DNA of 64,000 nt from a virus (taxonomy: Duplodnaviria > Caudoviricetes). Both the position numbers and the translations under genes were made by a program. The notes beneath the pieces are model-generated. The model made no database searches and was not told where the DNA came from. It saw only the letters and a list, made by a program, of their open reading frames with translations. Shown here piece by piece: positions 10,676-27,820 of the stretch (the first letter of the stretch is position 1; every line of letters begins with the position of its first letter). Location of the stretch: positions 1 to 64,000 of the IMG/VR virus record IMGVR_UViG_3300002446_000068; one strand, given 5' to 3'.

Positions 10676-10704
10676 TTGACTTTGCGTTTGTTCTGCGCTA
10701 TACT
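10676..10704 (+). promoter_or_regulatory. Promoter for portal/late genes
   Basis: TTGACT-N17-TATACT. Confidence 0.7.
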
Positions 10705-10749
10705 GGGGTGTGTACATTGGGTTTACAGGTCAGTACAGTAGGAGTGTGT

Positions 10750-13029
10750 ATGGAGAAAACAGTTGTCTTGAATGGTGAGGAAGTCCCCCGTTTCATTTCA
10801 GGCCAACAGGCAGGCTACAACCCCGAGTCGCAAAAGTGGCATGATGTTCACGGCAGGTTTGCCAAGCGTGAGGAAGCGTTGCGCACCCCGAATGAGTGGG
10901 GACGGTATATCAAAACTCCGTCCATGTCGCCTGTTTCGGATATGGCTGAAAAGCTAGAGGCTATGATTGGCGGTATGGACGTAGCATCCCTGCGTGCCGC
11001 CGAGAACATGACAGACCCCATGCCTTCTGCCATGCTGTCGATGATGCGCTTGGCAGAGTTTTACTGTATGGAGGGAGACGTTTTTCAGACCATTGAAGTT
11101 CCCTTGGACATTGCCCTAAAGCCTTTGGAGTTCCAATCGTCGGACAGTGGGTATCAGCGTGAGTTGGAGGAACTGTACTCGGAAGAACATCTGGACATGT
11201 ACCAGAACATGTACTACATCTGGCTGTGCAGTGGGCAGTACGGCCAAGCGTTCCCCCTGACTGTCTTTGATGAGGACAACCCACAGGACAGCCGAATCGT
11301 TCTGATTCCTCCCAAGAATGTCCGAGTAGGACGGTCTTTTTCGATGGGCGGCAACATTGGGATTATGTCACCTAGCTCGGAGGGGTGGACCCAACAGCTT
11401 CTTGAGACGGCGTTCCCACCGATGGTCTACAACCGCTATGTAGCGGATTGGAACGAAGCCGTTGCCCAGGGAAACGACATCATCATTCCCCCCGCAGACT
11501 GTTTCCCTGTCCGAGAAAAGTCCCTGCCCTTCCAGCGGTATGCAATCCCACCCGTTTACCGTGCCTCTCGGGCACTGTCCACACGCCGCATCTTTGAGGA
11601 GATGAGACGGGCCACCGTTGAGGGGTTCAAGAATCAATTGTGGTTCTTCCGCTATGGCGACCCCAAGGGGGAGAACATGCCCCTCCCCGAAGAAATCCAG
11701 TTCCTTGCCGACCAGGTAGAGGGCATGTATGGCGAGCGCACGGGCGTGCTGGTGTGGGAAGGCAGGCTGTCCATTGAGGTTCTGGGGCCACAGGCTCCCG
11801 ACAGGCTCATGGCGAATGAAACCTACGTGGGCCTCACGATGGAGGTCTTTCGCAAGCTGGGGGTAAGCCTGAAGCTGGTATCTGGCGAGTCTGGCCCCAT
11901 CGGTGGGCAAGGCCGAGCCGGTGACCTGGACCTTGACATAAGTATCTTGTTAGAGCGGGTGAAGTTTAAGATCAACCAGCTTCTTAGGTGGGAGCGGATG
12001 ACCCGTTCTAGGCTGGCCACCATCCTTGGCCCGAAAGCGGTCAAGGCCAACAGGGAGACTTCTGTCCGAACAGGCCGAATCGACATGGAGGTCGAGCGGC
12101 AGATTAGGGAGCGGTTGCTACCCGCCTACCAAGCTGGCCCACTGTCCATCCAGACCTTCTTGCAGGAAGGTGGCTGGGACTGGGCGGTTGAGTTGCAGCG
12201 CAAGACAGAAGAAGATCGGTATCGGGACTTGTTCTCACCTCCTGCATCCTTCTCGCAGATGGTGGTGGATTCTGGCGGGGAAAAGGAAAAAGAGGTCGAG
12301 CAGACGCCCTCCCCAGGCAGGCCCCGCGACCAGCAAAACCCAGTCCCCAAATCCCCCGAAGTAGAGGGGGCTTATGTGCAGGGCGTTGCGAACTTTAGTG
12401 AGTACGTCAATGAGATCTATGACGAGTTCGACAAGGTGGTGGCGGGCGGTGATGTGGACCAGTTTGTCCGTTCCTTGAAGGACATCAACCAGCAGCGGAT
12501 GTATGAGTTTGCCCAAGATGGCTATCGGTCTGCGGGTGGCTCTTTCGAGTTGGACAAGGGCTGGGTGGACGGCGCTGTCCAGTTCGTCAATTCGTATGCT
12601 GATGCGTTTGGTCAAAGGCTGGAGCAAGCGGCCACCAAAGAAACCTTACGGTGGAACGTTTACCTGTACCCCCAAGAGGGCAGGCATCTAGCCTACATGT
12701 ACGGCGTTCAGCAGGCCATGAAGGAGCGTGGGGCCAAGGCGTGGCGTCGCATCCTGCACCCGGAGCTTTCCAAGACAGGGCCTTGCGCCCAGTGCATCGC
12801 GGATAGCACAGTGGTCCATCCTATCACGGAAGGGTTTTTTGAGTTTCATCCTGACGGCCAGTGTACGGCAATGTCAGTCGCTTACTACACATCTATGGAC
12901 GAAATTCCTATCGAAATTCCTGTGCCCTCCAAGGTTTTCGATTCATCGCACATTCTAAGCATCCTGAAGGAATTGGGGCGAACACTGGCTCGACCAGTGC
13001 AGCAGATTGTGAGGCGTATTCGTGAGTAA
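10750..13029 (+). CDS. Portal protein, probably with fused C-terminal MuF/gp7-like head morphogenesis domain
   Basis: First large gene after terL; C-terminal WRRILHPELSKTGPCAQC...FHPDGQC resembles MuF C-terminal Cys/His motif. Confidence 0.65.
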   Translation: MEKTVVLNGEEVPRFISGQQAGYNPESQKWHDVHGRFAKREEALRTPNEWGRYIKTPSMSPVSDMAEKLEAMIGGMDVASLRAAENMTDPMPSAMLSMMRLAEFYCMEGDVFQTIEVPLDIALKPLEFQSSDSGYQRELEELYSEEHLDMYQNMYYIWLCSGQYGQAFPLTVFDEDNPQDSRIVLIPPKNVRVGRSFSMGGNIGIMSPSSEGWTQQLLETAFPPMVYNRYVADWNEAVAQGNDIIIPPADCFPVREKSLPFQRYAIPPVYRASRALSTRRIFEEMRRATVEGFKNQLWFFRYGDPKGENMPLPEEIQFLADQVEGMYGERTGVLVWEGRLSIEVLGPQAPDRLMANETYVGLTMEVFRKLGVSLKLVSGESGPIGGQGRAGDLDLDISILLERVKFKINQLLRWERMTRSRLATILGPKAVKANRETSVRTGRIDMEVERQIRERLLPAYQAGPLSIQTFLQEGGWDWAVELQRKTEEDRYRDLFSPPASFSQMVVDSGGEKEKEVEQTPSPGRPRDQQNPVPKSPEVEGAYVQGVANFSEYVNEIYDEFDKVVAGGDVDQFVRSLKDINQQRMYEFAQDGYRSAGGSFELDKGWVDGAVQFVNSYADAFGQRLEQAATKETLRWNVYLYPQEGRHLAYMYGVQQAMKERGAKAWRRILHPELSKTGPCAQCIADSTVVHPITEGFFEFHPDGQCTAMSVAYYTSMDEIPIEIPVPSKVFDSSHILSILKELGRTLARPVQQIVRRIRE

Positions 13030-14149
13030 GGTTGACAATGCGAGAATTCTGTATGTGTATGCCGACAATGCTCTTGAGAAATTCTACTGCTCCAATTGGC
13101 TGTGCTCTTTCCCAGCCTATGCGCTAGACCGTGCGGGGTATGCGGTGGGCATGGCACCCATTGATGAGTTTGTAAAGAAACCGCGCCCCGCAGACCTATA
13201 CATCGTAGAGCGACTGTTGTGGAACGGCAGCGACTCGGTCATATATGACAAAATGCCCAAAGGGCCGACCAGGGGGAGGGTGGAACGGCTCGCCAATCTG
13301 AAGGTATTGGACCGGATTGTCGAGTTGCAGGCCAAAGGAAGCAAGGTCGCCGCTGTGTTTGACGACCACTACGCCGCATACCCAAGGGATACCGACATAG
13401 CAGAACCAGCGGCGTTATGGTTGGATGGGAGACTGGATGATACCTACATAGGTTACAATCCCTTGGAACATTTCAAGAACGGTCTAGGGATTGTAAACGC
13501 AGTCTTTTCCCCATCAAAGTATCTCCTGGACTTTTATGTCGAGGACAAGAGTAAGGCATACCACGTCCACAACCGGCCTAATCTGGACATCTGGCAGCGG
13601 TTCGCGGGTGCGTGGGTGTCGGAGGATGATAAGGTACGGGTGGGCTGGTCGGGCACAGCGCAGCACGTTACTGGGTGGCAGGAAAGCGGGATTGTAGACG
13701 TGTTACGGGCGCTAAAGGATAAGATTGTGCTGGTCGGGGTGATGTCGGGCGACAAGATGTTGGACATGGTTGAGAAGTCTGGCGTAGAGCACCGCATACA
13801 GCGCCCAGTGCCGTTCGAGCAATTCCCCGACGTTGTGCGTTCTTACGACATTGGTATCTGTCCTCTTGGTGGTGAGTACGACAAGGGACGGTCGTGGATC
13901 AAGTGGTTGGAGTGCTCGCTTGCCGGGAAGCCTGTGGTGGCACAGGACCATGCGGGAGTGTACGACGAATGTCATGGCGGCTACCTGGTAAAGACCAAAG
14001 AGGATTGGATAGACGCGCTTTCCTACCTTATCGAGTGTGAGGAGGAGTACCGGCTCATGTCGGAAGCAGGGAGAGCGTGGGCATGGGCGCAGGGTTGGGA
14101 TGAGAACCTGTCGGAACTCACGTCCATCTTTGAGGAAATCCTAGAATGA
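13022..14149 (+). CDS. Glycosyltransferase, GT-B fold (GT4-like)
   Basis: RVGWSGTAQH, YDIGICPL...RSWIKWLECSLAGKPVVA. Confidence 0.85.
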   Translation: MSKVDNARILYVYADNALEKFYCSNWLCSFPAYALDRAGYAVGMAPIDEFVKKPRPADLYIVERLLWNGSDSVIYDKMPKGPTRGRVERLANLKVLDRIVELQAKGSKVAAVFDDHYAAYPRDTDIAEPAALWLDGRLDDTYIGYNPLEHFKNGLGIVNAVFSPSKYLLDFYVEDKSKAYHVHNRPNLDIWQRFAGAWVSEDDKVRVGWSGTAQHVTGWQESGIVDVLRALKDKIVLVGVMSGDKMLDMVEKSGVEHRIQRPVPFEQFPDVVRSYDIGICPLGGEYDKGRSWIKWLECSLAGKPVVAQDHAGVYDECHGGYLVKTKEDWIDALSYLIECEEEYRLMSEAGRAWAWAQGWDENLSELTSIFEEILE

Positions 14150-14904
14150 TTGATGTCGTGATACCGGTTTACAATAGCACAAAGCTGGTGCAGCAGTGCG
14201 TGGACGCAATCTGTGCCCAAAAGAGGGTCAACAGCATCATTATCGTCAATGACGCATCAACGGACACGGACCTACTGGACTATCTAAGCGGTGTGAAGGC
14301 CACCGTACTGCACAACAACCGCAACCTTGGGTTTGTCCATTCCGTCAACAGGGGGATGGAGATGGCCCAGACGGAATATGCCGTGATTGTCAACAGCGAC
14401 GTTGTACCGCTAACAAATGATGCTTTGTTCAAGCTGGTGACGACGATGGATTCCGTTAAGGCCCATGTCGGTGGCGCGAAGCTGCTATTCATGTCGGGGT
14501 CCAAGTTCGGCAAGCCCTGGACCATCCAGCACGCGGGGGTAGGATTTGACCCAGACGGCAAGCCATACCATCCGTTCATGCACCTGCACCGTGATACCAA
14601 GGCAGCGAACGTGCCGAAACTTGTTCATGCCGTAACGGGGGCCGTTATGGGCATAAGGATGTCCAAGTGGCGCGAGCTTGGGGGATTCGACAGGCGGTAT
14701 GCCCCTGGCGTGTTTGAGGATGTGGACTATTGTTTGCGAGCCAAGAGGGTAGTGTACGAACCGCTTTCAGAGTGGCTGCACCTGATGCACGGCTCGCAGA
14801 CGGAAGGAGTGAATCTATTCGACTACCACGATGAAAACTTAAAGTTGTTGCTTAGCCGTTGGCGAATGGAATCCGATGAATCATTGTACTATGGAGTGGC
14901 ATAA
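14146..14904 (+). CDS. GT2-family glycosyltransferase
   Basis: VVIPVYN, IVNDASTD, NLGFVHSVNRG, VNSD (DxD), TGAVM, FEDVDYC. Confidence 0.92.
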   Translation: MIDVVIPVYNSTKLVQQCVDAICAQKRVNSIIIVNDASTDTDLLDYLSGVKATVLHNNRNLGFVHSVNRGMEMAQTEYAVIVNSDVVPLTNDALFKLVTTMDSVKAHVGGAKLLFMSGSKFGKPWTIQHAGVGFDPDGKPYHPFMHLHRDTKAANVPKLVHAVTGAVMGIRMSKWRELGGFDRRYAPGVFEDVDYCLRAKRVVYEPLSEWLHLMHGSQTEGVNLFDYHDENLKLLLSRWRMESDESLYYGVA

Positions 14905-15741
14905 GTGGCGGTATTGCTAGTGTGCGCGGTTGTAGCCGTCGCAGTGATTGCGATGGACCACAAGCTAACGGCGTGGAATGAATTGCCGTTCAATGGATTC
15001 GGCAGTATCGAGCCGGTTGTCAAGAAAACGGCGACGCTACCCGTACGGTACAGGGTGCTGCTGCCTTGGGTTTACTGGCTGATATTCTGGATGCTGGGTG
15101 GGGAAGATGACCCACCAGAGCGCAGGCCCATCTACCTGTTCCTGAAGTGGGGACTGGCCTTTCTCTCTTTATCGGTGGCCACTTACTTTTTCTCGCCGGT
15201 GGTGGCCCTGGCTTTGGTAATTGGGTGGCTCTTGACGCTCCAGTACGACTATTGGAGTTGCTACGCCGAGCCGCTGGCCTTCCTGCTGGTACTAACGGGG
15301 AACGTGCCACTTGCGGTTATAGGAGTTATCATCGGCACATTGACCAAGCAAACTGCTATCTTTTTGCCCTTTGTGTTTCTGTCGGTGGGAGGGGGCTGGT
15401 GGTCGGTGCTCTTAGCGGGTGTGTACTCTGTGACCGATTTTATCACAAAGCGTTATCAGGGCAAGGGGGAGCGGAGTAACACGGTGCGTAAGCCGATGAA
15501 CGTAGCCTTCCACTATATCTGGGACAAAGAGCCGGAGTGGAGGTACTGGTTGCTGTTTGGGTGGGGGCTTGTCGCCATGACGTTTGTGTCCGTAGCGCAC
15601 TTTCAGTACATGCCCTCCCCCTTTATGGAGACGGCGTGGGTTCCGATGGCTGTATGCTGCGCGGCGTTCTTTAGGGCTTTGATACATGAACCGAGGGTGA
15701 TGGTCCTGAACGTGCTGTGGATTGGGAGCCTGATGGCATGA
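14905..15741 (+). CDS. Polytopic membrane protein (possible GT-C-like)
   Basis: Several hydrophobic segments; PVRYRVLLPW loop motif; embedded in glycosyltransferase cluster. Confidence 0.6.
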   Translation: MAVLLVCAVVAVAVIAMDHKLTAWNELPFNGFGSIEPVVKKTATLPVRYRVLLPWVYWLIFWMLGGEDDPPERRPIYLFLKWGLAFLSLSVATYFFSPVVALALVIGWLLTLQYDYWSCYAEPLAFLLVLTGNVPLAVIGVIIGTLTKQTAIFLPFVFLSVGGGWWSVLLAGVYSVTDFITKRYQGKGERSNTVRKPMNVAFHYIWDKEPEWRYWLLFGWGLVAMTFVSVAHFQYMPSPFMETAWVPMAVCCAAFFRALIHEPRVMVLNVLWIGSLMA

Positions 15742-16760
15742 CCCGCATTGGCCTTATCAGTGAGATGTATGGGGGGACTACTCCACCTACAGGGTATGGG
15801 GGAATCTCCGCTACCATCTACGACCTGGTATGCGAGTTCGTGCGGCGCGGGCATGACGTGACATTGTTTGCCACACCTGGTTCCTGGGCCAATGGGGCGC
15901 GGGTCATCATCTGCAAACCAGAGGACCACCCGCTATCTGTCAACGCCCCACTGCCTGCATATGCCGTAGAGGCCCTGAAACATCTGGACGAGATAGATGT
16001 CTGGGTAGATGGCTCTCACCACAAGTGGTTTGCAAGAGAGTGCAAGCAGCGGTACAAGGATGTCAACGTGCTATGCCCATCGTGGAATCCCAATAAGGAC
16101 GACCTACCGCAAAACAGCGTCTTGCAATCCCCAGCCCTAATAGACGCGATAGGGAACATGCCAAAGAATACACCGTGGTTCTACGCGGGGATTCCGTTGG
16201 ATGAGTACGAACCCTGTTATGAGGTGGGGGAACGCGGGGTGTCGATTAACGTTATGGCAGTGTACAAGGGTGTGGACATTCTGGTCCGGTCAGCAGCCAA
16301 GCACAAGTTCCCGCTAGACCTGTACGGCCATGCCCCCAATGAGAAGTGGCTTCAACAAGCCATTTTGCCTTATGTTGACAAGTGCGACAACATCGTGTAT
16401 CATGGGCCATGTGGGCCAGAACGGAAGCAGCATCTTGCCAAAGCGTCTGCCTTTTTCCTGATTGCCACCTGGTGGGAGCCTGGGTCGAGGGCAACACTGG
16501 AAGCATTTGCTTGTGGATGCCCCCCGGTGATGACCAGGGCCGGTTCGCTCAAGCACTACATCGAGGACACGGACAGCGGAGCTTATGTAAAGGCCAATGA
16601 GGATTCTGTGTACGAGGGGTATCTGCACGTCCTTGAGGGTGGCCCCGATATGAGGCATAGGGCGCGTCAGGTAGCGGAGGACAAGTTCAGCCTGGTCAAG
16701 TACGCCGACAATTGGGAAAGAATGTTTGCAAGGGTGATGAAGGGAGAGCGGTGGGAATGA
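15738..16760 (+). CDS. GT4-family glycosyltransferase
   Basis: TPPTGYGGI, GHDVTLFA, WWEPGSRATLEAFACGCPPV. Confidence 0.9.
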   Translation: MTRIGLISEMYGGTTPPTGYGGISATIYDLVCEFVRRGHDVTLFATPGSWANGARVIICKPEDHPLSVNAPLPAYAVEALKHLDEIDVWVDGSHHKWFARECKQRYKDVNVLCPSWNPNKDDLPQNSVLQSPALIDAIGNMPKNTPWFYAGIPLDEYEPCYEVGERGVSINVMAVYKGVDILVRSAAKHKFPLDLYGHAPNEKWLQQAILPYVDKCDNIVYHGPCGPERKQHLAKASAFFLIATWWEPGSRATLEAFACGCPPVMTRAGSLKHYIEDTDSGAYVKANEDSVYEGYLHVLEGGPDMRHRARQVAEDKFSLVKYADNWERMFARVMKGERWE

Positions 16761-17779
16761 TGATACCAGTCAGCAAACCAGGGACATTTACACCATCACA
16801 GATGCAGAGTGCCTTTCGCCCAATCATGGACAGGGCGTGGTTCACCAATGATGGCCCATGCGTCCGTGAGTTTGAGGAGAAGGTTGAGGACTTTTTAGGC
16901 CTGCCGCATTTCGTTGCGGTAGCGAACGGGACACTGGCGCTAGAAGCCGCTATCAGTGCTATGTTCCCAATGGGTTCAAGGGTCGCCATACCATCTTTCA
17001 CATTCGTTGCGGTGGCATCGGCCTTGGTGCGGTGCGGGTGCAGGCCTGTGTTTGTGGACATAGACCCCGAAACGTGGACGATGGACTACGATGAGTTTGC
17101 GAGCAAGACCAATCTTGGTGGGTTTGTAGTGCCTACGGTGTTTGGGGTGTTGCCCGACTACCGATTCGGTGAGACGCAAATTCCCGGCATCCTGGACAAC
17201 GCCGAAGGGTTTGGTAAAGTGACCCACCTGTTCTGCACGGCGGACGTGTATTCGTTCCATGCCACAAAAGTTGTATCGTCTGGGGAAGGTGGTGGGGTGG
17301 CGTGTGAGGAACCACTTGCCGGGCATATTAGACGGTGGCGAAACTTTGGGTTTGACGGTAGCGACCCTGCACCAGATATGGTTGGGACAAACGCCAAGAT
17401 GAGTGAGTTCCACGCGGCATTGGGCTTGCTGTCTCTAGGCCGGTACAAGTACCAAGTCCGGGAGCGAGCATTTCTTATGGACGTGTACCGCGACGAACTG
17501 GGGGAACGAGTCCAGTTTCAGAGAGGGTGGGACCCATACAACTGCACAATTCTGGTTGACAATAAGGAGAAGGTAGCGTCGTGGCTCAGGCAGTTTGGGG
17601 TGGACACAAGACCCTACTTCTACCCAATTCACAAAATGCCAGCATACCAGGAGTTTGTGGATGGGCCGTTGCCCGTTACGGAATCGGTGGCCTCTCGGTC
17701 GTTGACGTTGCCCTTGTGGGCAGGGTTGCCAGCGGAAACCGTGAGGAAGATTTGCAGACAGGTTAGGATGGTAGTGTAA
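16757..17779 (+). CDS. DegT/DnrJ/EryC1/StrS family PLP-dependent nucleotide-sugar aminotransferase
   Basis: ANGTLAL, PSFTFVA, VFVDID, SFHATKVVSSGEGG (PLP Lys), NAKMSEFHAALG. Confidence 0.93.
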   Translation: MMIPVSKPGTFTPSQMQSAFRPIMDRAWFTNDGPCVREFEEKVEDFLGLPHFVAVANGTLALEAAISAMFPMGSRVAIPSFTFVAVASALVRCGCRPVFVDIDPETWTMDYDEFASKTNLGGFVVPTVFGVLPDYRFGETQIPGILDNAEGFGKVTHLFCTADVYSFHATKVVSSGEGGGVACEEPLAGHIRRWRNFGFDGSDPAPDMVGTNAKMSEFHAALGLLSLGRYKYQVRERAFLMDVYRDELGERVQFQRGWDPYNCTILVDNKEKVASWLRQFGVDTRPYFYPIHKMPAYQEFVDGPLPVTESVASRSLTLPLWAGLPAETVRKICRQVRMVV

Positions 17780-18477
17780 TGGATGATATGGTGATTGCGG
17801 GGTGTGTCGGAGCGATAGGAAGTCACTTGATGCGAGCGTTTGCGTCCGAGTACAGGTTGCTGGGAATATTCCACAACCTTACGCCCAAGCCGCTATTGGG
17901 TGACCCGCACCGCTACATGATTGCTGATGTGGCCCACTTTGAGGATGTAGAACCGTTGGTTGACATCGTGGAATTGGGTCCGAGAATCGTGCTGGTAAAT
18001 GCTGTGGGCAAGACCATCAACGGGACGGGCCACAAGCAGAACCCGCGTGATGTCCAGGACGTGCTGAACACGAACCTTCTGGGCGCGTTCAATCTTTGCC
18101 GTGCGTTCTTGCCTCTCATGCGGGACAGGGCATGGGGCAGAATCATCAACCTGTCATCTGTGGTGGGGTTGCGGGGTGTGCCTGGAGCATCGGCGTATGC
18201 GGCTTCCAAGGCAGGGCTTGTGGCCATGACCAGAACCTTAGCAGTGGAGAACGCACGGAAGGGAATCACGGTCAATGCCCTGAACCTGGGCTACATGGAG
18301 GATGGGTTAATCAATGCTGTTCCGGAAGACGCCAGGGGCAGGATTATAGAGGATAGAATCCCAATGAGACGTTTGGGGAATCTGGACAACATCACAGCAG
18401 CAGTGAGGTTTCTCATCGATGCAGATTATGTAACGGGGACGGCGATTGACATCGACGGGGGGTTTCTGTGCTCATAG
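17779..18477 (+). CDS. Short-chain dehydrogenase/reductase (FabG-like)
   Basis: GCVGAIG Rossmann, NLLG, NLSS, YAASK catalytic motif, ITVNAL. Confidence 0.9.
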   Translation: MDDMVIAGCVGAIGSHLMRAFASEYRLLGIFHNLTPKPLLGDPHRYMIADVAHFEDVEPLVDIVELGPRIVLVNAVGKTINGTGHKQNPRDVQDVLNTNLLGAFNLCRAFLPLMRDRAWGRIINLSSVVGLRGVPGASAYAASKAGLVAMTRTLAVENARKGITVNALNLGYMEDGLINAVPEDARGRIIEDRIPMRRLGNLDNITAAVRFLIDADYVTGTAIDIDGGFLCS

Positions 18478-19034
18478 GGAAAGACGTAACCATTTACCCT
18501 TGGACCAGGATTGTCCGACCGGAGGCTATCACGATTGGCGATAGCGTCATCATCGACGACTTTGTTTTCCTTGACGGTGGACAGGAGATGAGGATTGGTA
18601 GCTTTGTCCACATCGCCGCCCATGCTGCTGTTATGGGTGGAGGCACGTTCATCATGGAGAACTTTGCTGGCCTTTCCGGTGGGGTGAAGGTGTACACCGG
18701 GTCAGAGGATTATGGAGGGGCCTATCTTACCAACCCAAGCGTTCCCGAACCGTGGCGGCACCCGGTGCGGTCACACGTTATCATGCGCAAGCACTCACTG
18801 ATAGGGAGCGGGTCTGTGGTACTGGCGGGTGTGGAAATTGGGGAAGGGGCATCGGTGGGTGCTCTATCGTTGGTTAACAGGGACTTGGAGCCGTGGACGG
18901 TGTACGGGGGAGTGCCTGTCCGACCGCTGAAAAAGAGGAACCGAGACAGAATGCTGGCATTGGAAGCAGAGTTACGTCTTGCATTGTACAAAGACGGACG
19001 ATACATACCGAAAGAGGAAAGGGAGACACTGTGA
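18468..19034 (+). CDS. Hexapeptide-repeat (LbH) O/N-acyltransferase
   Basis: IGDSVIID, IGSFVHIA, LAGVEIGEGASVGALSLV, VYGGVP. Confidence 0.9.
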   Translation: MLIGKDVTIYPWTRIVRPEAITIGDSVIIDDFVFLDGGQEMRIGSFVHIAAHAAVMGGGTFIMENFAGLSGGVKVYTGSEDYGGAYLTNPSVPEPWRHPVRSHVIMRKHSLIGSGSVVLAGVEIGEGASVGALSLVNRDLEPWTVYGGVPVRPLKKRNRDRMLALEAELRLALYKDGRYIPKEERETL

Positions 19035-20797
19035 AGGCTTGCGTAACGACATCTCATCTCTATGGAATGGGCGGTGGGGCCAAGGCTGTCTTTTGGATTG
19101 TCAAGGGGCTGCACAAGCACGGTTCTGTAACCGTATTCACCAAGACAGCAATCCCGGACAGCGTGATTGCCGAAATGCCAAAAGGCGTCATGTACGCCAA
19201 CTGGTATCCGGGGTGCTCTGCGGGCTACGATGTCCACGTGTGCATCGATCACTTCAACTACGAACCGCCGATGGCCAAGCGCAACCTGGCGCTGGTCTTT
19301 CATCCGCATAGGCGCAATGTCCCACCTGAACAGTATGAGTTGTGGGCTATTAGCCGCTACACACAAGCCCAAATCAAGGAGCAGTGGGGGCGCGAGTCCC
19401 TTGTCTTTTATCCATCTGTGGACGGGGATTTGTATTCAGGGCAAAAGGCAAAGCGTATCCTGCACATCTCGCGTTTCTCTGCCCCAAACCAGTACGCCGA
19501 CAAGGGGCATCGCCACATGATTCGGGCTTTCAAAGCCCTAAAGTCGGACTGGGAGTTTGTCTTGGCAGGCTCCACAGACCCCGCACAGGGCGGCTACCTA
19601 TCGTCCCTCATGGCGGAGGCGGCTGGAGCTAACATCCGGTTCGCCCCCAACCTTTCAAGAAAAGATTTGTGCGATCTGCTTGCATCGTCCTCTATCTACT
19701 GGCACATGACGGGGATTGGAGCGCCGGATATCCCTAGTGCGCAGGAGCATCTTGGGATTACGACCATAGAGGGCATGGCCAGCGGGTGTGTGCCCATTGT
19801 CTTGGGGACAGGGGGCCAGCCGGAAATTGTGCAGGACAGGATAAGTGGCGTACTGGTGCGTGACGTGGATGGATTGGTAAAGACCACAGACGTTCTTATG
19901 TCAAACTTGGGTACATGGGCGCTGTTACAACAGCAGGCACTATTGGCTGGGCAGGCATGGCTTGAGGGGGACTGGTACTACGACCAGTTTGCTGGACTGC
20001 TGCTGGACGGGGTGGACATGACCGCGCCGGTTGCGGAAAGCCCCATCCTGAACTATGGCATGGACAATGTGGATGTGATTATCCCCATCTATAACAGCGT
20101 CACCATTGGGCAATGCCTGGACAGGATACCTGCTGGGCCGAATGTGATTGTCGTGGACAATGGGTCCGACGCGCCAGTAACGCACAACAGAATCGACCAG
20201 TACATCCGTCTTGAGGAGAACCGTGGTTTCGCGGGTGGCAACATGGCTGGGTTTGAGATATCCACCCGCCCTGTGGTGCTGGCGTTGAACGACGATTGCA
20301 TCCCGCCAGACAATTCAATGTGGCTTACGGCCATGCTCTTGACGCTCTCGAAAGAAAGGTGCGCCGTGGTTGGGGCCAAGCTGTTGTATCCTGATGGGCG
20401 GTTGCAACACGCTGGGGTGTACTTTGACTTTCACCGTAAGGACATAGGGTTCCACCGGCTTTATGGAGTCAAAGACCATCCCAACGCCAATATTGCTGTT
20501 AAGGTTCCCGCTGTGACGGGGGCCTGCCTGTTGTGTAAGCGAGAGTTCTTTGACATGCACCCCGAACTGTACCCATACGGGAACTATGAGGATGCACACT
20601 TGTGTTTGGATGTGTGGCGTAGGGGGTATGAGGTTTGGTATCAGCCCGCAGCTTCCCTCACACATATTGAGGCGGTGACGAAAAGGGCGTTGGATATTGA
20701 TTTTACCTCACTCAACCGCAAGGTGTTTGTGGAACATTGGCGCACCATCTTCTTGGACTCCGAGGAGATGAATCATGCAAGAGAGGTAAATACGTAA
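19031..20797 (+). CDS. Two-domain glycosyltransferase (N-terminal GT4 + C-terminal GT2)
   Basis: EHLGITTIEGMASGCVP then VIIPIYN, VVDNGSD, LNDD, TGACLL, YEDAHLC; GTG start coupled to upstream TGA. Confidence 0.9.
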   Translation: MKACVTTSHLYGMGGGAKAVFWIVKGLHKHGSVTVFTKTAIPDSVIAEMPKGVMYANWYPGCSAGYDVHVCIDHFNYEPPMAKRNLALVFHPHRRNVPPEQYELWAISRYTQAQIKEQWGRESLVFYPSVDGDLYSGQKAKRILHISRFSAPNQYADKGHRHMIRAFKALKSDWEFVLAGSTDPAQGGYLSSLMAEAAGANIRFAPNLSRKDLCDLLASSSIYWHMTGIGAPDIPSAQEHLGITTIEGMASGCVPIVLGTGGQPEIVQDRISGVLVRDVDGLVKTTDVLMSNLGTWALLQQQALLAGQAWLEGDWYYDQFAGLLLDGVDMTAPVAESPILNYGMDNVDVIIPIYNSVTIGQCLDRIPAGPNVIVVDNGSDAPVTHNRIDQYIRLEENRGFAGGNMAGFEISTRPVVLALNDDCIPPDNSMWLTAMLLTLSKERCAVVGAKLLYPDGRLQHAGVYFDFHRKDIGFHRLYGVKDHPNANIAVKVPAVTGACLLCKREFFDMHPELYPYGNYEDAHLCLDVWRRGYEVWYQPAASLTHIEAVTKRALDIDFTSLNRKVFVEHWRTIFLDSEEMNHAREVNT

Positions 20798-21165
20798 TGG
20801 AAAACTGGTTTCCAATCCTTGTCCAAATCATAGTCGTAATTATAACAAGTAGCGGTGGGTGGGCCTTGCTTAGTGACCAACGCAGAAAGCTCCGGATAGA
20901 GACACAAGATGTCGCTGTCAATGCTATGCACAAAGTAAATGATGAGCTTAGGGATGAGCTAGAGAGAGCAAGATGCCGTATCCATGCACTGGAGGCTGCA
21001 CAAGAAGAAGGAGAATCCAGGATTGGAAACTTGGAGGCTACGTTGGCGATTGTGCAGAAACGGCTGATGGTGCTGTCCGTTGGTGTGAGGCTTTTGACCG
21101 AGCAGATTCGGTCGCTTGGCCATGAGCCTGTGTGGAAAGATGTGGAAGAAACGATTGGAGAGTAA
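20797..21165 (+). CDS. Membrane-anchored coiled-coil protein (holin-like candidate)
   Basis: N-terminal hydrophobic segment FPILVQIIVVII followed by heptad-rich region. Confidence 0.55.
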   Translation: MENWFPILVQIIVVIITSSGGWALLSDQRRKLRIETQDVAVNAMHKVNDELRDELERARCRIHALEAAQEEGESRIGNLEATLAIVQKRLMVLSVGVRLLTEQIRSLGHEPVWKDVEETIGE

Positions 21166-21168
21166 AGG

Positions 21169-22320
21169 TCAACTACTACCGGCTAAAGCTGGTAGCTTGG
21201 CCCTAGAGGACGACGACGGGCCCGACTGAAGGTCGGGGGACTGAACCTCTGAGCCGTGCGGCTGATTGACAGCAGCCCTACCCGCAATGTTACGGGCAGC
21301 GACGGTATCAGCGTGGGCGGAGAAACCACAACTGGTACAGGAGAAATTAGATTGAGTACGACGATTGGCCTTATCGACACAACCGCACATGGGACAGATG
21401 CGGCTGGTGTTGCGCGGATCGACCGCGACTACGGGAACCCCAGCCAGCTTCGCCTTGTACTCGATCTTTTGACGCAAATCATAAAAACTCCAGGAGTGAT
21501 GTCGTCTCCGCTGGGCCTTACGAACCGTTGTCCGTTCGCGTATGCCACTCAGTTCTTCGAGGGCAATCCCGCGCCCGGTGCCTTTGGCTTTTTCGACAAT
21601 TCTCTTAGAGATTACATGGTTCACATCTTTGGCGAATCGCGATTCTTTCCTGCGTCGTTTCTTGAGCAGGCGCTTCGCCGACTTGGTTCCCTTACTTTGC
21701 AACCTTGCCTTAATCTTTTGGTTGCGCTCCCGCAGGTTATTGACGTGGGACCCAGAGTAAATAGTCCCATCCGAGTCAGCGGCAATATTGACAATTCCCA
21801 TATCAACTCCAAGAAACTCAGCAACATCAGAAGTCTCTGGGGTTTCAACTTCACAGGAGCAAAACAGATAGAATGCGCCATCAATAAAGCAAAGGCCACT
21901 CTGGCCCCTCTTTCCATGCAGCAATCCAAGGGCGCGGGCATTGCAAGCAAATGGGATTCTTTCGCGACTGGCTATAGTCAAAATACTGACCTGCTGCGAA
22001 TCAAGGCTCCAAGAGAGACATCGCTGGTCGTAGGCGATGGCACCATCTTCTCTGAACAGCCGCTTAACCTTTTGATCCAACCTATAGGCGTGAGCAACCT
22101 TGGCGATGCAACGAACCGCCAACTGTGCGCCCAAATCAAATGTAGTCCGCACGTCATAATAGACCTCGTGGTGAAGGCTATACTGACTGAAGACCTTGGT
22201 TTCCCAGGCCACGTCACTGACCCAGTTGCAAGCGGCGTTGACACGAAGTATAGTGTCGTAAAGCGATTTATGCTGATCTTGGGTTGGGTTCAGTTTTACC
22301 TTGGCTGTAAGTGTCATCAT
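21169..22320 (-). CDS. tnpB: RNA-guided endonuclease TnpB
   Basis: RuvC-I LGVDMG, RuvC-II IALEEL, Zn finger CPMC..CTSC, RuvC-III HADTVAARNI. Confidence 0.93.
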   Translation of the reverse strand: MMTLTAKVKLNPTQDQHKSLYDTILRVNAACNWVSDVAWETKVFSQYSLHHEVYYDVRTTFDLGAQLAVRCIAKVAHAYRLDQKVKRLFREDGAIAYDQRCLSWSLDSQQVSILTIASRERIPFACNARALGLLHGKRGQSGLCFIDGAFYLFCSCEVETPETSDVAEFLGVDMGIVNIAADSDGTIYSGSHVNNLRERNQKIKARLQSKGTKSAKRLLKKRRRKESRFAKDVNHVISKRIVEKAKGTGRGIALEELSGIRERTTVRKAQRRRHHSWSFYDLRQKIEYKAKLAGVPVVAVDPRNTSRICPMCGCVDKANRRTQSNFSCTSCGFSAHADTVAARNIAGRAAVNQPHGSEVQSPDLQSGPSSSSRAKLPALAGSS

Positions 22321-22329
22321 AATGAACAC

Positions 22330-22358
22330 AACATACCATACTTAAACCGACTTGTCAA
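22330..22358 (-). promoter_or_regulatory. tnpB promoter
   Basis: TTGACA-N17-TATGTT, ATG 10 nt downstream. Confidence 0.6.
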
Positions 22359-22454
22359 ATCCAAGACCCTAAAGGGCTATGGCAAGGCGTCTCCTCCCTC
22401 AGCTAAAGCTGAGGGTGTCCGTCGCTGCCGCGTTGGCAAAAGGAGTAGTGGACT

Positions 22455-23231
22455 ATGATTGTAGGGATGACGGTTCTGAAAAACGCGACGAAGATGGGGT
22501 ACCCGTGGGTTGAGGCAATCCTAACGGTTCTCCCAGTGTGTGACCACTTCCACATTGGGGAAGGGTACTCCGAGGACGACACGTGGGATGTCCTGATGAG
22601 GCTGAAGGAGAAGTACGGCGACCAGATCAGCCTGAGCCGCTACGAGTGGCCTGTTATGGGGACGGGCTTTGCTATCGGGGCGGCGACGAACGATGCGCTG
22701 AACAAAATCAGGCGCTTGGGCGGCAAAGTCTTGTACGTGCAAGGGGATGAGCTGTGGCACCCGGACAGCCTTGTGGAAATGAAACGTCTGGCAGGGGAAG
22801 ACTATGATGCGTACAGCGTCCCGTACTTGCACCTTGAGCACAATTGCCAGGAGGTGCAGGAGGGGGCTGGGTATCAACGGGCGATACGCATGGTGGCCAA
22901 TAAGGATACCATTATCGCCCACCGTGACGCTTGGACGTTTGAGGGGTACGAGCGATGCTTGAGTATTCATTCTCTACCCCATCCTCTGGTCCACTGCAAC
23001 TACTGCTTTTGGGACAATGTGCCCATCAAAAAGAGGGTGCAGGCCGACGAGTTATACCAAGATCTTGGGCACTACCAACGGGCCGCTGAACTGGCAGAGC
23101 AACTGTACACCGACGAGCCGCCCCAAATGTTCAGGGAGACGGGTTCGCCGTTCATCGAGCACCTGTCCCCGCTGTTTGTGCCTATGCTTGGACAGCGGAA
23201 GTATTATGTCCGGGAGGAATTGCTGGCATGA
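22455..23231 (+). CDS. GT2-like (GT-A fold) glycosyltransferase
   Basis: GMTVLKNA..MGYPWVEAI, GYSEDDT, YVQGDELW. Confidence 0.8.
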   Translation: MIVGMTVLKNATKMGYPWVEAILTVLPVCDHFHIGEGYSEDDTWDVLMRLKEKYGDQISLSRYEWPVMGTGFAIGAATNDALNKIRRLGGKVLYVQGDELWHPDSLVEMKRLAGEDYDAYSVPYLHLEHNCQEVQEGAGYQRAIRMVANKDTIIAHRDAWTFEGYERCLSIHSLPHPLVHCNYCFWDNVPIKKRVQADELYQDLGHYQRAAELAEQLYTDEPPQMFRETGSPFIEHLSPLFVPMLGQRKYYVREELLA

Positions 23232-23926
23232 GAATCGCTACCTACTGCATCACATTCCCGGAAGAACATGACATTGTTATGAACATGGTCCGGCAGGCCA
23301 GGAAACTTGGCGATGTCTGGATTGTGGACGGGGGACCAGATGGACATCTGTGCCATAACCCAAGGGCCGACATCAACCCCTGGGTTTTGCAGAGAATGGC
23401 AGAGGAGCACGGGTTCATCTACACGCGGATTCCGTGGCCTGGGAATCCTGGGGCGCAAAGGAACAATGCCTTGCGGATGATGGAACCTTATGGGTACGAC
23501 TGGATTATCCAGAACGACAGCGACGAGTTGTGGCCGGACCAGAGCATCGCCGCCATTCCTGGGTATCTGGAAAGCCTTGACCCCATCCAATCCAACGTGA
23601 TAGTAAAGGTGTTTCCTCTTGTGGTGGATGAGCAGCACTATAGCAAGCGGTATGCCCACCACCTGACACACGGGCGCATACACAGGGGCGGCACGGTGCA
23701 GTGGGGGGAAACCTGGCACGAGCACCAGTTTTTCAAGGGCGAGCGGGTCAAGAGTGACTTGTGGTTGTTGCATACAAACTGGTTGTTCCTTGAGCGACTG
23801 AAACGAATCAAGGGGCATGGGCTTGAGCGGTGGGGGGATGTCGATAGGACGCCCATCCCGAATTCTCTTGGGCTAACATGGCCTGCACTGGATTATCCCG
23901 ATGGCGATAGGCTTTGCAGTACGTAG
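23228..23926 (+). CDS. GT2-like (GT-A fold) glycosyltransferase
   Basis: WIVDGG, GAQRNNAL, WIIQNDSDE, WHEH. Confidence 0.78.
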   Translation: MRIATYCITFPEEHDIVMNMVRQARKLGDVWIVDGGPDGHLCHNPRADINPWVLQRMAEEHGFIYTRIPWPGNPGAQRNNALRMMEPYGYDWIIQNDSDELWPDQSIAAIPGYLESLDPIQSNVIVKVFPLVVDEQHYSKRYAHHLTHGRIHRGGTVQWGETWHEHQFFKGERVKSDLWLLHTNWLFLERLKRIKGHGLERWGDVDRTPIPNSLGLTWPALDYPDGDRLCST

Positions 23927-24623
23927 CTTAGACGAATCTATCAAGATGTACGTGGAGACATTGGGTCGTGGCACACAATGGATTCTCCCGACTACAGACT
24001 GGCGTGTGTTTCATGCCTGGGTGATGAGCAGGGCGCGGCGTCCGCTCAAGACAGTTGTTGTGACAGACATGTGCTATATCCCGTTCTTGGATTATGTAAA
24101 GGGACGATTCGGGTCCAAGATTGTATGCCTTGACATGCGCGATGACGGTTCGGTATCATGGACGGAGGCGGACGCCAGTTACACCATGTATGACCTTGGC
24201 TGGGGTGTGGACAAGATACGCTGGCAGAAAGAGGCTTCGTTCCGCGAGTGGCGCAGATACCCGGTGTTTTACTTGACGGAGCGCGATCATGGGTTGGAGA
24301 GAGAGCTTATAGCGCGGGGACACAGGGTTGCAAGTGGGAACAAGAACTACTCGATGGGTAACGTCGCCATTGTCCCCAAGAGACAATACACACCCAGCAG
24401 CATCTATGAGGCGATAGCGTCGGGCATGGCTGTAGTCACGACAAGGGAGAACAAACGGTGGCTTGATGGGTTCCCGGGCTTTTCTACCTATCTGGAAGAT
24501 GGGGTGGATGCAGTTGTTGGTGATGTAACGGGCACGGACTTTAAGCTATTAGGGATGATGGCGCAGGAGACGGTGCCAAGTGTGCGGGACTTTCGGGAAA
24601 AGCTGTTGGGAATATTAGCTTGA
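23901..24623 (+). CDS. Divergent GT-B-like glycosyltransferase
   Basis: IVPKRQYTPSSIYEAIASGMAVVTT resembles GT4 E-x7 nucleotide-binding motif. Confidence 0.55.
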   Translation: MAIGFAVRSLDESIKMYVETLGRGTQWILPTTDWRVFHAWVMSRARRPLKTVVVTDMCYIPFLDYVKGRFGSKIVCLDMRDDGSVSWTEADASYTMYDLGWGVDKIRWQKEASFREWRRYPVFYLTERDHGLERELIARGHRVASGNKNYSMGNVAIVPKRQYTPSSIYEAIASGMAVVTTRENKRWLDGFPGFSTYLEDGVDAVVGDVTGTDFKLLGMMAQETVPSVRDFREKLLGILA

Positions 24624-24647: not shown

Positions 24648-24711
24648 AGTATAGAGGGGACGGCATCGGACATAATAGTTGCCGGGGGAGCAGTTTAGAA
24701 CCGGAGCGAGC

Positions 24712-25098
24712 ATGGCACAACCAAGTCACGAAGCCAGAATCACGGCATTAGAACAAGCCATCGGCGGGGGGCAACCCACCGCAGCGGGGGTAACGCTTGA
24801 AAAGCACTTTGAATCCAGAATTGAAGCTCTGGAAAAGGCTACGGGCGTAGCTGCTGTTGCTATGGAGCGTCGGCTGGATGGGATGAATGAGTTCCGTGAC
24901 ACACTTAGGGACCAGGCGGCGAGATTTGCCACACGGGATGAAGTGAACTTGCGGATTAATACACTGAACGATGAAGTGGAAACCCTGAAAATCTTTCGGG
25001 CGGTAATTGACGCCAAGGCCAACATCAACGCAGTGTATGTCAGTTATGTGCTGGCTTTGGTGGGCATCGTCCTGAGCATTTTGTCGTTGTTGAAGTAA
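24712..25098 (+). CDS. Coiled-coil protein with C-terminal TM (holin-like candidate)
   Basis: ERRLDGMNEFRDTL..Q...F phage family pattern; C-terminal YVLALVGIVLSILSLL. Confidence 0.6.
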   Translation: MAQPSHEARITALEQAIGGGQPTAAGVTLEKHFESRIEALEKATGVAAVAMERRLDGMNEFRDTLRDQAARFATRDEVNLRINTLNDEVETLKIFRAVIDAKANINAVYVSYVLALVGIVLSILSLLK

Positions 25099-25107
25099 GG
25101 TGAATGA

Positions 25108-25797
25108 ATGGGCGTGCGGATAGTTCGACCAGAGCGGAAAATCTACCACATCCCCGGCCTGGGGATACAGACCATCGAGGCGCTGGCGAGCGGGGCGGCC
25201 TGGTGGAAGGTCGCGGGCAAAACGTGCGCCGCGGCGTACCAGCCGAAAGGCGCGGCCAGCTATGCGGCGAGCAAAATCAATCTGGCGAATCCGGGGACAT
25301 ATGATGCGACGGAGGGAACTGCGCCGTCGTGGGATGCGGGGAATGGCTGGAAGTTCGATCACACTAATTCAGAGTATCTGAACACAGGCGTTGTACCGAA
25401 CAACGACTGGACGATGATTGCGCAATTCAGCGATCATATTGCCGGAATCGGCGATTATCGGCTTTGCGGACAGAACTCATCAACCAACCAGCCGCATTTT
25501 ATGGGGCCGAATTATTGGGGTACAAAGCGATTTGTTAACGGCCTTCACCTCGATGCTGGAGCCGGTGCTCTTTCGGGCAATATTGCGCTGGCGGGAATGA
25601 ATGGCTATTTCAACGGCGCATCTGTGGGCACAATCACCGGCGCGGGATTTACTGGTGTTGGTAGAACGATATGGATCGGTTCGGGAAATCCGACGGCAAG
25701 TTTTACCACAGTATACATCCAGGCATGGGCGGTCTATTCGGGCACGTTATCGGCGGCTGAAATTGCGGTGTTGGCAGCGGCGATGGCGGCGTTGTAG
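25108..25797 (+). CDS. ConA-like lectin/LamG-type virion protein
   Basis: YQPKGAASY...W....GWKFD...YLNTG, beta-rich, WAVYSGTLSAAEI terminal LamG pattern. Confidence 0.65.
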   Translation: MGVRIVRPERKIYHIPGLGIQTIEALASGAAWWKVAGKTCAAAYQPKGAASYAASKINLANPGTYDATEGTAPSWDAGNGWKFDHTNSEYLNTGVVPNNDWTMIAQFSDHIAGIGDYRLCGQNSSTNQPHFMGPNYWGTKRFVNGLHLDAGAGALSGNIALAGMNGYFNGASVGTITGAGFTGVGRTIWIGSGNPTASFTTVYIQAWAVYSGTLSAAEIAVLAAAMAAL

Positions 25798-25806
25798 GAG
25801 GCAGGT

Positions 25807-25938
25807 ATGAGACACCGTTTGCGAATATGGAGCATAGACATAGACATCTGGTGGTACGAACACGGGGACCGTTGGCCACGACTGTGGCGGCTGTGGGATC
25901 GCAAGGTCGCACCGCTATTGGTGGCGATAGCAGGTTAG
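25807..25938 (+). CDS. Trp-rich 43-aa microprotein
   Basis: Hand translation MRHRLRIWSIDIDIWWYEHGDRWPRLWRLWDRKVAPLLVAIAG; AGGAGG RBS; fills gap between genes. Confidence 0.45.
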   Translation: MRHRLRIWSIDIDIWWYEHGDRWPRLWRLWDRKVAPLLVAIAG

Positions 25939-25948
25939 GAGGCACGTG

Positions 25949-26221
25949 ATGGCTTCGCAAGGCGAATTTCTGGTAGTAAAAACGGTCAACGACTGCACGA
26001 CGCTACTGTCGCAGTTGGAAGCGGCCAAGACGACGGCGCAGCGCATCAGCCAGCGGATGGTGAGTCTCGGCATTCCGGCGCTGGCTGGGTACGCATGGCC
26101 GGAGGGGTACACGCAGTCGGATTTCGTCGCGCTGTACACGGCGTTGTCAGCCCTGCCTGGCTCGATGGTAGCGGATACAACGCGGGATGCGATTTTCAAA
26201 CTGGTGAGCAGCATCCAGTAG
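25949..26221 (+). CDS. Hypothetical protein
   Basis: AGGAGG RBS; 90 aa. Confidence 0.65.
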   Translation: MASQGEFLVVKTVNDCTTLLSQLEAAKTTAQRISQRMVSLGIPALAGYAWPEGYTQSDFVALYTALSALPGSMVADTTRDAIFKLVSSIQ

Positions 26222-26233
26222 GGAGTATGGGGC

Positions 26234-27401: not shown

Positions 27402-27430
27402 TTGACATGTCCGTAGAGTTGTTGTATAAT
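27402..27430 (+). promoter_or_regulatory. Consensus sigma70-type promoter for head genes
   Basis: TTGACA-N17-TATAAT followed by GGAGGT RBS. Confidence 0.85.
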
Positions 27431-27801: not shown

Positions 27802-27820
27802 AAGAGGAACTGGTGTAAGT

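Follow-up and report, generated by a model that had tools for sequence, protein, structure and literature searches.

Large glycosyltransferase gene block within the head module of an uncultured phage

What does a phage make with some 10 kb of carbohydrate genes set among the genes of its head, and to what would the product be attached? The question is raised by IMG/VR virus record IMGVR_UViG_3300002446_000068, a 72,957-bp virus genome rated 100% complete by CheckV, whose first 64 kb are the stretch of DNA analysed here (the window). The genome is that of an uncultured phage of 73 kb. Its packaging and head module lies on the plus strand in the left part of the window and runs through terminase, putative portal, glycan block, a variable stretch, holin-, scaffold- and cement-like genes, the major capsid protein (MCP) gene and tail genes. 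The glycan block (13022-24623) is a single-strand, plus-strand run of coupled glycan genes with a net length of ~10 kb. The reading that we favour, tentatively and with slightly less than even confidence, is that this block would direct cytoplasmic glycosylation of virion head proteins with a complex glycan.

Gene content and conservation of the block

A preliminary description of the window had counted seven glycosyltransferase (GT) genes with about eight GT domains of GT-A and GT-B fold, as well as a sugar aminotransferase, a short-chain dehydrogenase/reductase (SDR), an acyltransferase and a polytopic membrane protein. Protein searches with the putative portal and the MCP found relatives of the phage in metagenomes only, and these are cited here by handle: G001 is a complete genome of 75,428 bp with terminal repeats, L010 and L004 are NCBI contigs of metagenome-assembled genomes (MAGs; 74,295 bp), and SRR14699975 is a Logan contig. 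The genes of the block are as follows, with supporting matches in brackets.

13022-14149, plus strand: GT-B (GT4-like) GT (Glyco_trans_1_4, 27.4 bits against a cut-off of 27; PHROG glycosyltransferase, 3.8e-7)
14146-14904, plus strand: GT2 of GT-A fold (Glycos_transf_2, 7.5e-18; conserved at 52-54% identity)
14905-15741, plus strand: minimal GT-C-fold membrane protein of 278 aa (~6 hydrophobic segments; AlphaFold2 (AF2) model from a 48-sequence alignment, predicted local distance difference test (pLDDT) score 95)
15717-16760, plus strand: GT4 (Glycos_transf_1, 3.7e-13; Glyco_transf_4, 9e-6; 47-51% identical in relatives)
16757-17779, plus strand: pyridoxal phosphate (PLP)-dependent sugar aminotransferase, DesI-like (DegT_DnrJ_EryC1, 3.1e-57; PLP_DesI of NCBIfam, 5e-53)
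17779-18477, plus strand: classical SDR, acetoacetyl-CoA reductase/FabG-like (adh_short_C2, 5.5e-37; AcAcCoA_reduct, 1.7e-46, and FabG families of NCBIfam)
18468-19034, plus strand: left-handed beta-helix N-acyltransferase, AntD-like (Hexapep, 3.2e-10; PDB 3vbi-3vbp, 5e-34, over residues 3-168 of 188)
19031-20797, plus strand: two-domain GT4+GT2 fusion (Glycos_transf_1, 5e-14; Glycos_transf_2, 3e-12; 55-60% identical in relatives)
20797-21165, plus strand: small protein with an N-terminal transmembrane helix and a coiled coil (weak PHROG match, 2.8e-5; counterparts 27-29% identical in L010 and L011)
21169-22329, minus strand: IS605-type TnpB of 386 aa (Cas12f1-like_TNB, 9e-23, and OrfB_IS605, 2.9e-12, both Pfam)
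22455-23231, plus strand: GT-A-like GT of 258 aa (viral GT2 clusters of the ESM Atlas, score 0.98; 68-71% identical in relatives)
23228-23926, plus strand: probable GT-A-like GT of 232 aa (Glycos_transf_2, E=0.0094, and 5.6e-4 in the G001 orthologue; 49-80% identical in relatives)
23901-24623, plus strand: conserved protein of 240 aa (orthologue 35% identical in G001)

Searches of Pfam, NCBIfam, PHROGs and PDB together with hydropathy confirmed the polytopic membrane protein and identified the aminotransferase, the SDR and the acyltransferase unambiguously. The totals given earlier for the GTs also hold, but their membership changes. Three firm assignments (14146-14904, the GT4 gene and the fusion) and three weaker ones (13022-14149, 22455-23231 and 23228-23926) make six soluble GT genes with seven GT domains, and adding the GT-C-fold membrane protein brings the count to seven genes and eight GT-type domains, with GT-A, GT-B and GT-C folds all present. 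The 240-aa gene, which had probably been included in the earlier count, is unsupported as a GT: it has no Pfam, PHROG or relevant PDB profile match. Its candidacy as a truncated GT-B enzyme was rejected, as hhalign against the block GT4 profile gave a probability of 19% and the PDB profile search found nothing relevant.

Among the remaining GTs, the product of 13022-14149 is 49-51% identical in G001, L010 and L011 and has weak PDB profile matches to MshA (E=0.02) and PglA; an hhalign comparison of the 375-aa family with the GT4 family, at four sequences per profile, was uninformative. The GT2 encoded at 14146-14904 has a GtrB-like PHROG match (6e-6) confined to its N-terminus, and a hydropathy scan found no transmembrane segment in it. 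For the GT4 gene, the ATG at 15738 is the likely start codon; it overlaps the stop codon of the gene before. GT4+GT2 fusions of 587-599 aa were found in G004, G006, G001 and SRR14699975, and the fusion is a signature gene of the lineage. The 258-aa GT-A has no Pfam match of its own and a weak PDB match to GmaR (E=0.41); several of its 62 homologues carry PF00535, and one is named 'glycosyltransferase family 2 protein' by NCBI. Its family is dominated by viruses, and it is the best-conserved gene of the block, above the portal or the MCP.

The block follows the portal homologue with the same gene order in G001, L010, L011 and SRR14699975, four independent assemblies from different samples. The shared order is GT4-like GT, GT2, GT4, DegT aminotransferase, SDR, hexapeptide acyltransferase, GT4+GT2 fusion, small protein, 258-aa GT-A and 232-aa GT-A-like protein. 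Block proteins are 46-71% identical to those of the relatives, compared with 56-63% for the portal and 61-68% for the MCP. Accessory genes vary: the GT-C gene is present in the window and L011, an epimerase-family gene in L011, and a sulfotransferase gene in G001 and the Logan contig.

Distant relatives, found through an MCP 36-51% identical to that of the window (L005/L006, L008 and G002-G006), extend the survey of related phages that had been suggested as a check on the preliminary description: beyond the four close relatives that keep the block, all eight carry two to five GT genes within ~16 kb upstream of the MCP gene and on the same strand. The same GT layout was found in L097, which was reached through the 258-aa GT-A (41% identical). 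The tailoring genes of the distant relatives differ and comprise UDP-galactopyranose mutase, B12/radical-SAM enzymes, an epimerase, a methyltransferase and, once, ThyX with ribonucleotide reductase. Because relatives swap sulfotransferase, epimerase, UDP-galactopyranose mutase, radical-SAM and methyltransferase genes, the predicted glycan should differ between them in a serotype-like manner.

Two further observations concern these loci. In L005 (1691-4420) and L006 (1703-4420), whose MCP is 51% identical, an intein-split B12-binding radical-SAM enzyme lies beside UDP-galactopyranose mutase and an HNH gene. In L097 (10816-11583), a 255-aa tRNA-synt_1c protein (Glu/Gln-tRNA synthetase catalytic domain) is encoded right after the conserved GT-A gene; its role may be to join an amino acid to a sugar.

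No cultured relative was found by megablast with 20 kb or by tblastn with the portal, the MCP and the 258-aa GT-A against 50,697 GenBank phages, in which the fusion GT matched only short unannotated fragments at ~30% identity. A search for prophage relatives with the MCP profile matched nothing in 185,579 species (one genome each), and a search with the tyrosine integrase family PF00589 found no integrase in the genome; there is thus no sign of lysogeny.

The gene content resembles that of a bacterial O-antigen or exopolysaccharide locus, and the preliminary description had itself raised the prospect of host DNA joined by misassembly, to which a polysaccharide locus flanking a prophage can be added. 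The same block with the same viral flanks in four independent assemblies rules out misassembled host DNA. The viral portal gene and the first gene of the block also overlap at the portal stop codon, and composition is uniform, at a GC content of 0.52-0.56 in the block against 0.51-0.59 across the window, so that the block is no outlier. Finally, a priming enzyme and Wzx, the hallmarks of a Wzx/Wzy-dependent O-antigen or capsule locus, are missing: the families PF02397, PF00953 and PF01943 (priming phosphoglycosyltransferases of Bac_transf and WecA/MraY type, and Wzx flippase) are absent from the whole 73-kb genome, whereas the controls were positive in 10-13 of 14 reference genomes. Conserved synteny and the GT genes of the relatives therefore exclude host DNA or misassembly, an origin whose probability we put as negligible.

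The claim that most genes of the block are translationally coupled was borne out: successive genes share 1-26 nt or adjoin directly, and the first GT gene begins within the last codons of the putative portal gene. Upstream of the portal gene, the sequence at 10676-10704 resembles a promoter. A perfect TTGACA-17-TATAAT match (27402-27430; scan score 12/12) precedes the holin- and scaffold-like genes. Terminator-like sites were no more frequent in the scanned region than in shuffled sequence (17 found, 17.0 expected). From this arrangement the block appears to share a late transcription unit with the putative portal gene.

The run is interrupted by an IS605-type insert of ~1.3 kb (~21166-22454) that carries TnpB only and is antisense to the block. 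It is absent from G001, L010 and L011, in which the flanking genes abut, and is a recent passenger outside the glycan pathway. A plus-strand open reading frame (ORF) at 21256-22458 was rejected as spurious, the coding frame being that of the minus-strand TnpB. The element has a promoter-like site on the minus strand (22358-22330) and, by eye, hairpin-forming ends.

Predicted amino-sugar branch and the GT-C-fold protein

Three adjoining genes, for the aminotransferase, the SDR and the acyltransferase, are predicted to form a coherent pathway. The aminotransferase matches PDB 2po3 (1.6e-40) and perosamine synthetases (~1e-31) and is nearest to DesI-type dTDP-4-keto-6-deoxyglucose 4-aminotransferases. 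Among the PDB entries matched by the acyltransferase, 3vbn is AntD of B. cereus, the N-acyltransferase of the anthrose pathway, with CoA and dTDP bound (PMC6031040); anthrose is a sugar on the BclA exosporium glycoprotein, that is, part of a protein-linked glycan (PMC7793302). The likeness to the anthrose pathway (AntC, AntD) lies in an AntD-like acyltransferase adjoining a DegT aminotransferase that is nearest to 4-aminotransferases. The two differ in that the ant operon uses an enoyl-CoA hydratase, whereas in the phage a FabG/acetoacetyl-CoA-reductase-like SDR would provide the acyl donor, and in that the phage block holds no methyltransferase.

Since no Pfam family of a nucleotidyltransferase or 4,6-dehydratase was found on any ORF of the block (L011 alone has a short epimerase/dehydratase-family gene), the keto-sugar would have to be supplied by the host. 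The branch would thus take a host-made NDP-4-keto-6-deoxyhexose, which the aminotransferase would aminate at C4; the acyltransferase would then place a 3-hydroxyacyl group on the amine, drawing on acyl-CoA made by the SDR. An NDP-4-(3-hydroxyacyl)amino-4,6-dideoxyhexose would be the most parsimonious product. Because the NCBIfam scores of the aminotransferase and the SDR all fall below the equivalog cut-offs, it is by inference that we name the exact sugar and acyl group. The GTs would combine the acylated donor with ordinary host NDP-sugars into a hetero-oligosaccharide of up to ~seven residues.

The polytopic membrane protein encoded at 14905-15741 belongs to a family whose 106 representatives are for the most part 260-300 aa long, within a range of ~160-400 aa and with one outlier of 639 aa; none of the 48 members scanned has a Pfam family. 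Its 20 best VIA structural matches were all GT-C-fold proteins, 18 of them enzymes and two GPI-transamidase entries, with Z-scores of 8.1-13.2 over 230-264 of the 278 residues; the following match had a Z-score of 6.0. The matches include Pmt1/2 (Z 13.2), AftA (12.5), AglB (11.1) and ArnT (11.0), and further Pmt4, STT3, ALG9/12/6/3, PglB, AftB, PimE, GPI mannosyltransferase, DPY19, AftD and Emb; Foldseek gave ALG9/STT3 with a probability of 0.96-0.99. We are confident, from the structural model, that the protein has a GT-C fold. In the 48-sequence alignment R50, Y77, Y116, E122, E262 and R264 are invariant, while the first outer loop, which joins membrane helices 1 and 2, contains no invariant Asp or Glu, so that the protein may lack catalytic activity.

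The GT-C gene is accessory, as L011 is the only core-block relative that has one; G001 and SRR14699975 are without it, and L010 carries an unrelated 231-aa gene at its position. Related genes occur in 13 other IMG/VR viral contigs (L106-L118) from unrelated phages, where their neighbours encode capsid, portal, terminase, adaptor and tape-measure proteins and no GtrA-like neighbour was seen. Two contigs with the GT-C homologue P0110 are too short for gene context. GT-C-fold enzymes act outside the cytoplasm. The protein would thus be an accessory arm of the pathway and, if catalytic, would work at the outer face of the host membrane.

Candidate acceptors of the glycan

The genes that flank the block supply the setting for any acceptor, and some of them are themselves candidates.

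6437-9409, plus strand: large terminase with a LAGLIDADG intein (Intein_splicing, 5.9e-19, and LAGLIDADG_3, 2.4e-16, both Pfam; PHROG terminase large subunit, 5.7e-9)
10708-13029, plus strand: putative portal of 773 aa (position after the large terminase and size)
24679-27396, plus strand: variable region encoding a coiled-coil/transmembrane protein, a LamG-like protein of 229 aa, a Ser/Thr-rich acidic protein of 209 aa and a BppU_N-like protein of 102 aa
27436-27801, plus strand: holin-like membrane protein (PHROG holin, 1.3e-8; 57% identical in G001)
27749-29086, plus strand: scaffold-like coiled-coil protein (coiled-coil Pfam matches alone, at residues 316-416; no PHROG match)
29096-29551, plus strand: cement/decoration-like head protein (Phage_cement, 1.9e-4, below the cut-off; the same weak match in L004; 58-63% identical in relatives)
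29563-30507, plus strand: MCP (PHROG major head protein, 2e-12; family profile against PDB 6wkk 'Gp27 major capsid protein', 3.1e-9; Phage_capsid_4, 4e-5)

The preliminary description had placed the block between the portal and the protease and capsid genes. The capsid side of this statement was verified through the MCP, and the portal stands by position and size, but no prohead protease was detected by Pfam or PHROG searches between the block and the MCP, the scaffold-like protein included.

A virion protein is the most likely acceptor because the genes lie in the head operon and lipid-carrier priming enzyme, flippase and polymerase are lacking. The acceptor would be a virion protein accessible in the cytoplasm, such as the capsid protein, the cement protein or the product of a variable lectin-like gene. 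We favour the virion reading because of the coupling to the portal gene, the position conserved in the lineage, and the absence of priming, flippase, integrase and base-hydroxylation genes.

The closest architectural parallel is found in mycobacteriophages. Corndog gp38 and Che8 gp110 have been named as essential for capsid glycosylation (PMC12363180). The preliminary description had invoked Che8 as the precedent for GTs in a structural region; in Che8, however, the GT genes (gp108-110) occupy the right end of the genome (also PMC11256854), and it is Corndog that fits, with gp36-38 directly upstream of gp39, the capsid maturation protease gene. As in Corndog, where GT genes stand upstream of the protease and capsid genes, the phage block comes after the putative portal gene and ahead of the genes for scaffold, cement and capsid proteins, and the cassettes of both mycobacteriophages resemble it in encoding soluble GTs without lipid-carrier export genes. 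The likeness to Corndog is architectural only, because blastp, phmmer and profile hmmsearch found nothing significant against Che8 gp108-110 and Corndog gp37-38 (best E=0.006 in a five-sequence database). The mycobacteriophage cassettes hold three GT genes, compared with six soluble GT genes, a GT-C-fold protein and an amino-sugar branch here, so the statement that the pathway is much larger than known phage cases holds against Che8 and Corndog. The hosts also differ, being Actinobacteria there and probably Chloroflexota here, and glycosylation is proven in the mycobacteriophages whereas here it is deduced from the genes.

Several points weigh against glycosylation of the virion. No acceptor of the glycan can be named from sequence alone, and the missing homology to the proven mycobacteriophage GTs belongs here as well. 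The GT-C protein, judged from its model, points to chemistry outside the cytoplasm, out of reach of virions assembled inside the cell. The substrates of GT4 and GT2 enzymes are very often lipid-linked intermediates, and the priming step could fall to a host enzyme. The portal label of the 773-aa protein is unverified: the protein is 56-75% identical across 15 relatives, but it has no match in Pfam or PHROGs, an 11-sequence profile found none among PDB sequences, its AF2 model has a pLDDT of 45.7, and a structure search returned helical-bundle noise with no portal among the fold matches. In L008 the portal-scaffold interval also holds ThyX and ribonucleotide reductase, which makes the site in part a general cargo site, and in the distant relative G006 some 80 kb separate the capsid gene from the fusion-GT cluster.

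Some of these points lead to the host envelope, which the preliminary description had named beside a virion glycan coat; the evidence lends partial support to the pair and leaves both readings. In the envelope version, the main rival but in our view less likely than the virion reading, soluble GTs would extend a polyprenyl-linked oligosaccharide that the host primes and flips, and the GT-C protein with the adjacent GT2 would add a sugar to a surface polymer or protein. The effect would be a block to superinfection, or progeny kept from sticking to infected cells and debris. The high-confidence GT-C fold of the membrane protein argues for it, as do the abutment of its gene with a GT2 gene that has the weak GtrB-like match, the small transmembrane proteins within and after the block, the EPS- and PglA-type GT4/GT2 families among the best weak matches, and the abundance of carbohydrate-active genes in the phage and G001.

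The same gene pair recalls Gtr-type (GtrA/GtrB/GtrC) and CsbB/YfhO-type modules, in which a GT2 gene is likewise followed by one for a polytopic membrane protein of GT fold. Here, however, the GT2 lacks C-terminal membrane helices, there is no integrase or lysogeny context, and the pair sits within a late head operon; the membrane protein is also much shorter than known GT-C enzymes. For a GtrA-like flippase, the Pfam scans run gave no match on any small ORF of the block, with PF04138 not searched genome-wide. Remodelling of the envelope is opposed further by the lack of a priming enzyme and flippase of the phage's own, by coupling of the genes to late head genes and not to a lysogeny module, and by the GT-C gene itself. 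This gene is found in L011 alone among the four core-block relatives, its family lies among capsid, portal and terminase genes in the 13 other viral contigs, and its product, with no conserved acidic residue in the first outer loop, is possibly non-catalytic.

A further question is whether the genes make one product at all. The portal-scaffold interval might simply tolerate insertions, and unrelated sugar genes with several targets might have accumulated in it. Its content does vary, with ThyX and ribonucleotide reductase in L008, the intein-bearing radical-SAM and HNH genes in L005/L006 and TnpB in the window, and the 2.7-6 kb that follow the block are wholly different between close relatives. 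Against such mixed cargo, which we regard as improbable, ten genes keep their order and tight coupling although the portals are only 56-63% identical, the 258-aa GT-A exceeds both the portal and the capsid protein in conservation, and the predicted amino-sugar branch is coherent as a pathway.

The variable stretch itself (24679-27396; Laminin_G_3, 1e-4, and BppU_N, 1e-4, in Pfam) has no tblastn counterpart in any close relative; at the same site G001 encodes proteins with DUF2341+GH43-like and BNR_4 (sialidase-like) domains. The pair of LamG-like and 209-aa proteins recurs side by side, at 36-43% identity, in the Anaerolineae MAG contig L105 (G197:C111; 2680-16228), where it adjoins a 911-aa GT4+GT2+GT2 protein, a Glyco_hydro_cc protein and HK97-gp10-like and Mu-F-like genes. 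L105 may represent a second, unrelated phage that links such proteins with GTs. One may speculate that the lectin- and glycosidase-like variable proteins accept the glycan or read it. In three relatives the contigs break off in the stretch after the block (window 24679-27396; L003 1882-7700), which may reflect strain-level variation.

Modified DNA would be another target, with the GTs glycosylating bases as in T4, RB69 and metagenomic 5-hydroxymethylcytosine (5hmC)-glycan systems. Phage GT clusters that build glycans on DNA give this idea a precedent (PMC13326640; bioRxiv 10.1101/2023.12.21.572611). We nevertheless consider it very improbable, as no Tet/JBP dioxygenase, C5-cytosine methyltransferase or thymidylate-synthase homologue is present in the genome, and an N-acyl amino-sugar branch with a membrane GT-C protein is ill-suited to base chemistry.

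A broader form of the virion reading, which is doubtful as a whole, would have a family-level phage lineage, probably of Chloroflexota, keep a fast-diversifying 'glyco-typing' region in its head operon. Its core would be the GT4+GT2 fusion, the virus-specific GT-A and the N-hydroxyacyl amino-sugar branch, together placing a glycan on head proteins, while swappable tailoring genes and the adjacent lectin- and glycosidase-like genes would change the glycan and its readers. The 278-aa GT-C protein would then be a new class of phage-borne membrane GT that works with virion assembly.

Flanking genes, host and significance

The terminase gene forms the upstream boundary of the packaging and head module. 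Its intein measures ~430 aa; the terminases of relatives, at 555-561 aa, are intein-free and align to residues 589-988. Downstream, the scaffold-like gene stands directly before the cement and capsid genes in all relatives. The holin-like gene lies immediately upstream of it, an odd site for a lysis gene that is conserved in G001. The tail genes past the MCP include one for a tape measure protein of 1348 aa. No RNA family of Rfam was found within 12.5-30.6 kb of the window. Far from the block, a Ro60/TROVE gene was detected on the minus strand at 60443-62245 (vWA_Ro60, 6e-63).

The host is likely to be a member of the Chloroflexota. The nearest TnpB homologues (~45 loci, ~45-60% identity) come almost all from this phylum (Anaerolineae, Ardenticatenales, Chloroflexia and Ktedonobacterales), and it is because of these homologues, the Anaerolineae contig match, the bacterial-type promoters and the AGGAGG ribosome-binding sites that we make the assignment. 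A comparison of 20 kb of the window with 401 Anaerolineae genomes gave short matches at chance level and one match of 112 nt, at 74% identity, in the LamG-like gene. An archaeal host, suggested by a weak DUF7310 match and by Hjc in relatives, was set aside in view of the sigma-70-type promoters, the AGGAGG sites and the Chloroflexota relatives of TnpB.

Giant viruses offer a further comparison. Chloroviruses and Megavirinae make the glycans of their capsids or fibrils with several GTs of their own, without recourse to host GTs, and with aminotransferase and acetyl/acyltransferase tailoring (PMC9614988). The phage block is alike in combining virus-encoded amino-sugar tailoring with several GTs. 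Giant viruses are, however, viruses of eukaryotes with genomes roughly ten or more times larger, and they have nucleotide-sugar dehydratases of their own, which the phage lacks.

Virion glycosylation is, to our knowledge, proven in only a few mycobacteriophages, where it shields particles from antibodies and so matters for phage therapy. Phage-encoded virion glycosylation and GT genes in head modules are already known as such. Distinctive features here are the net size of ~10 kb, the presence of all three GT folds (GT-A, GT-B and GT-C), an acyl-amino-sugar branch of AntD type, and a position that stays fixed throughout a deep lineage while the gene content changes. For glycoengineering, the block provides compact, co-linear sets of soluble GTs together with a short amino-sugar pathway, and it draws attention to an uncharacterised family of 278-aa GT-C-fold proteins in phage structural modules. 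If the glycan is indeed placed on the virion, phage virion glycosylation would extend to a far larger pathway, an uncultured lineage and a poorly studied host phylum, and the glycan would be a variable surface trait of that lineage, its genes kept in position while their content changes.

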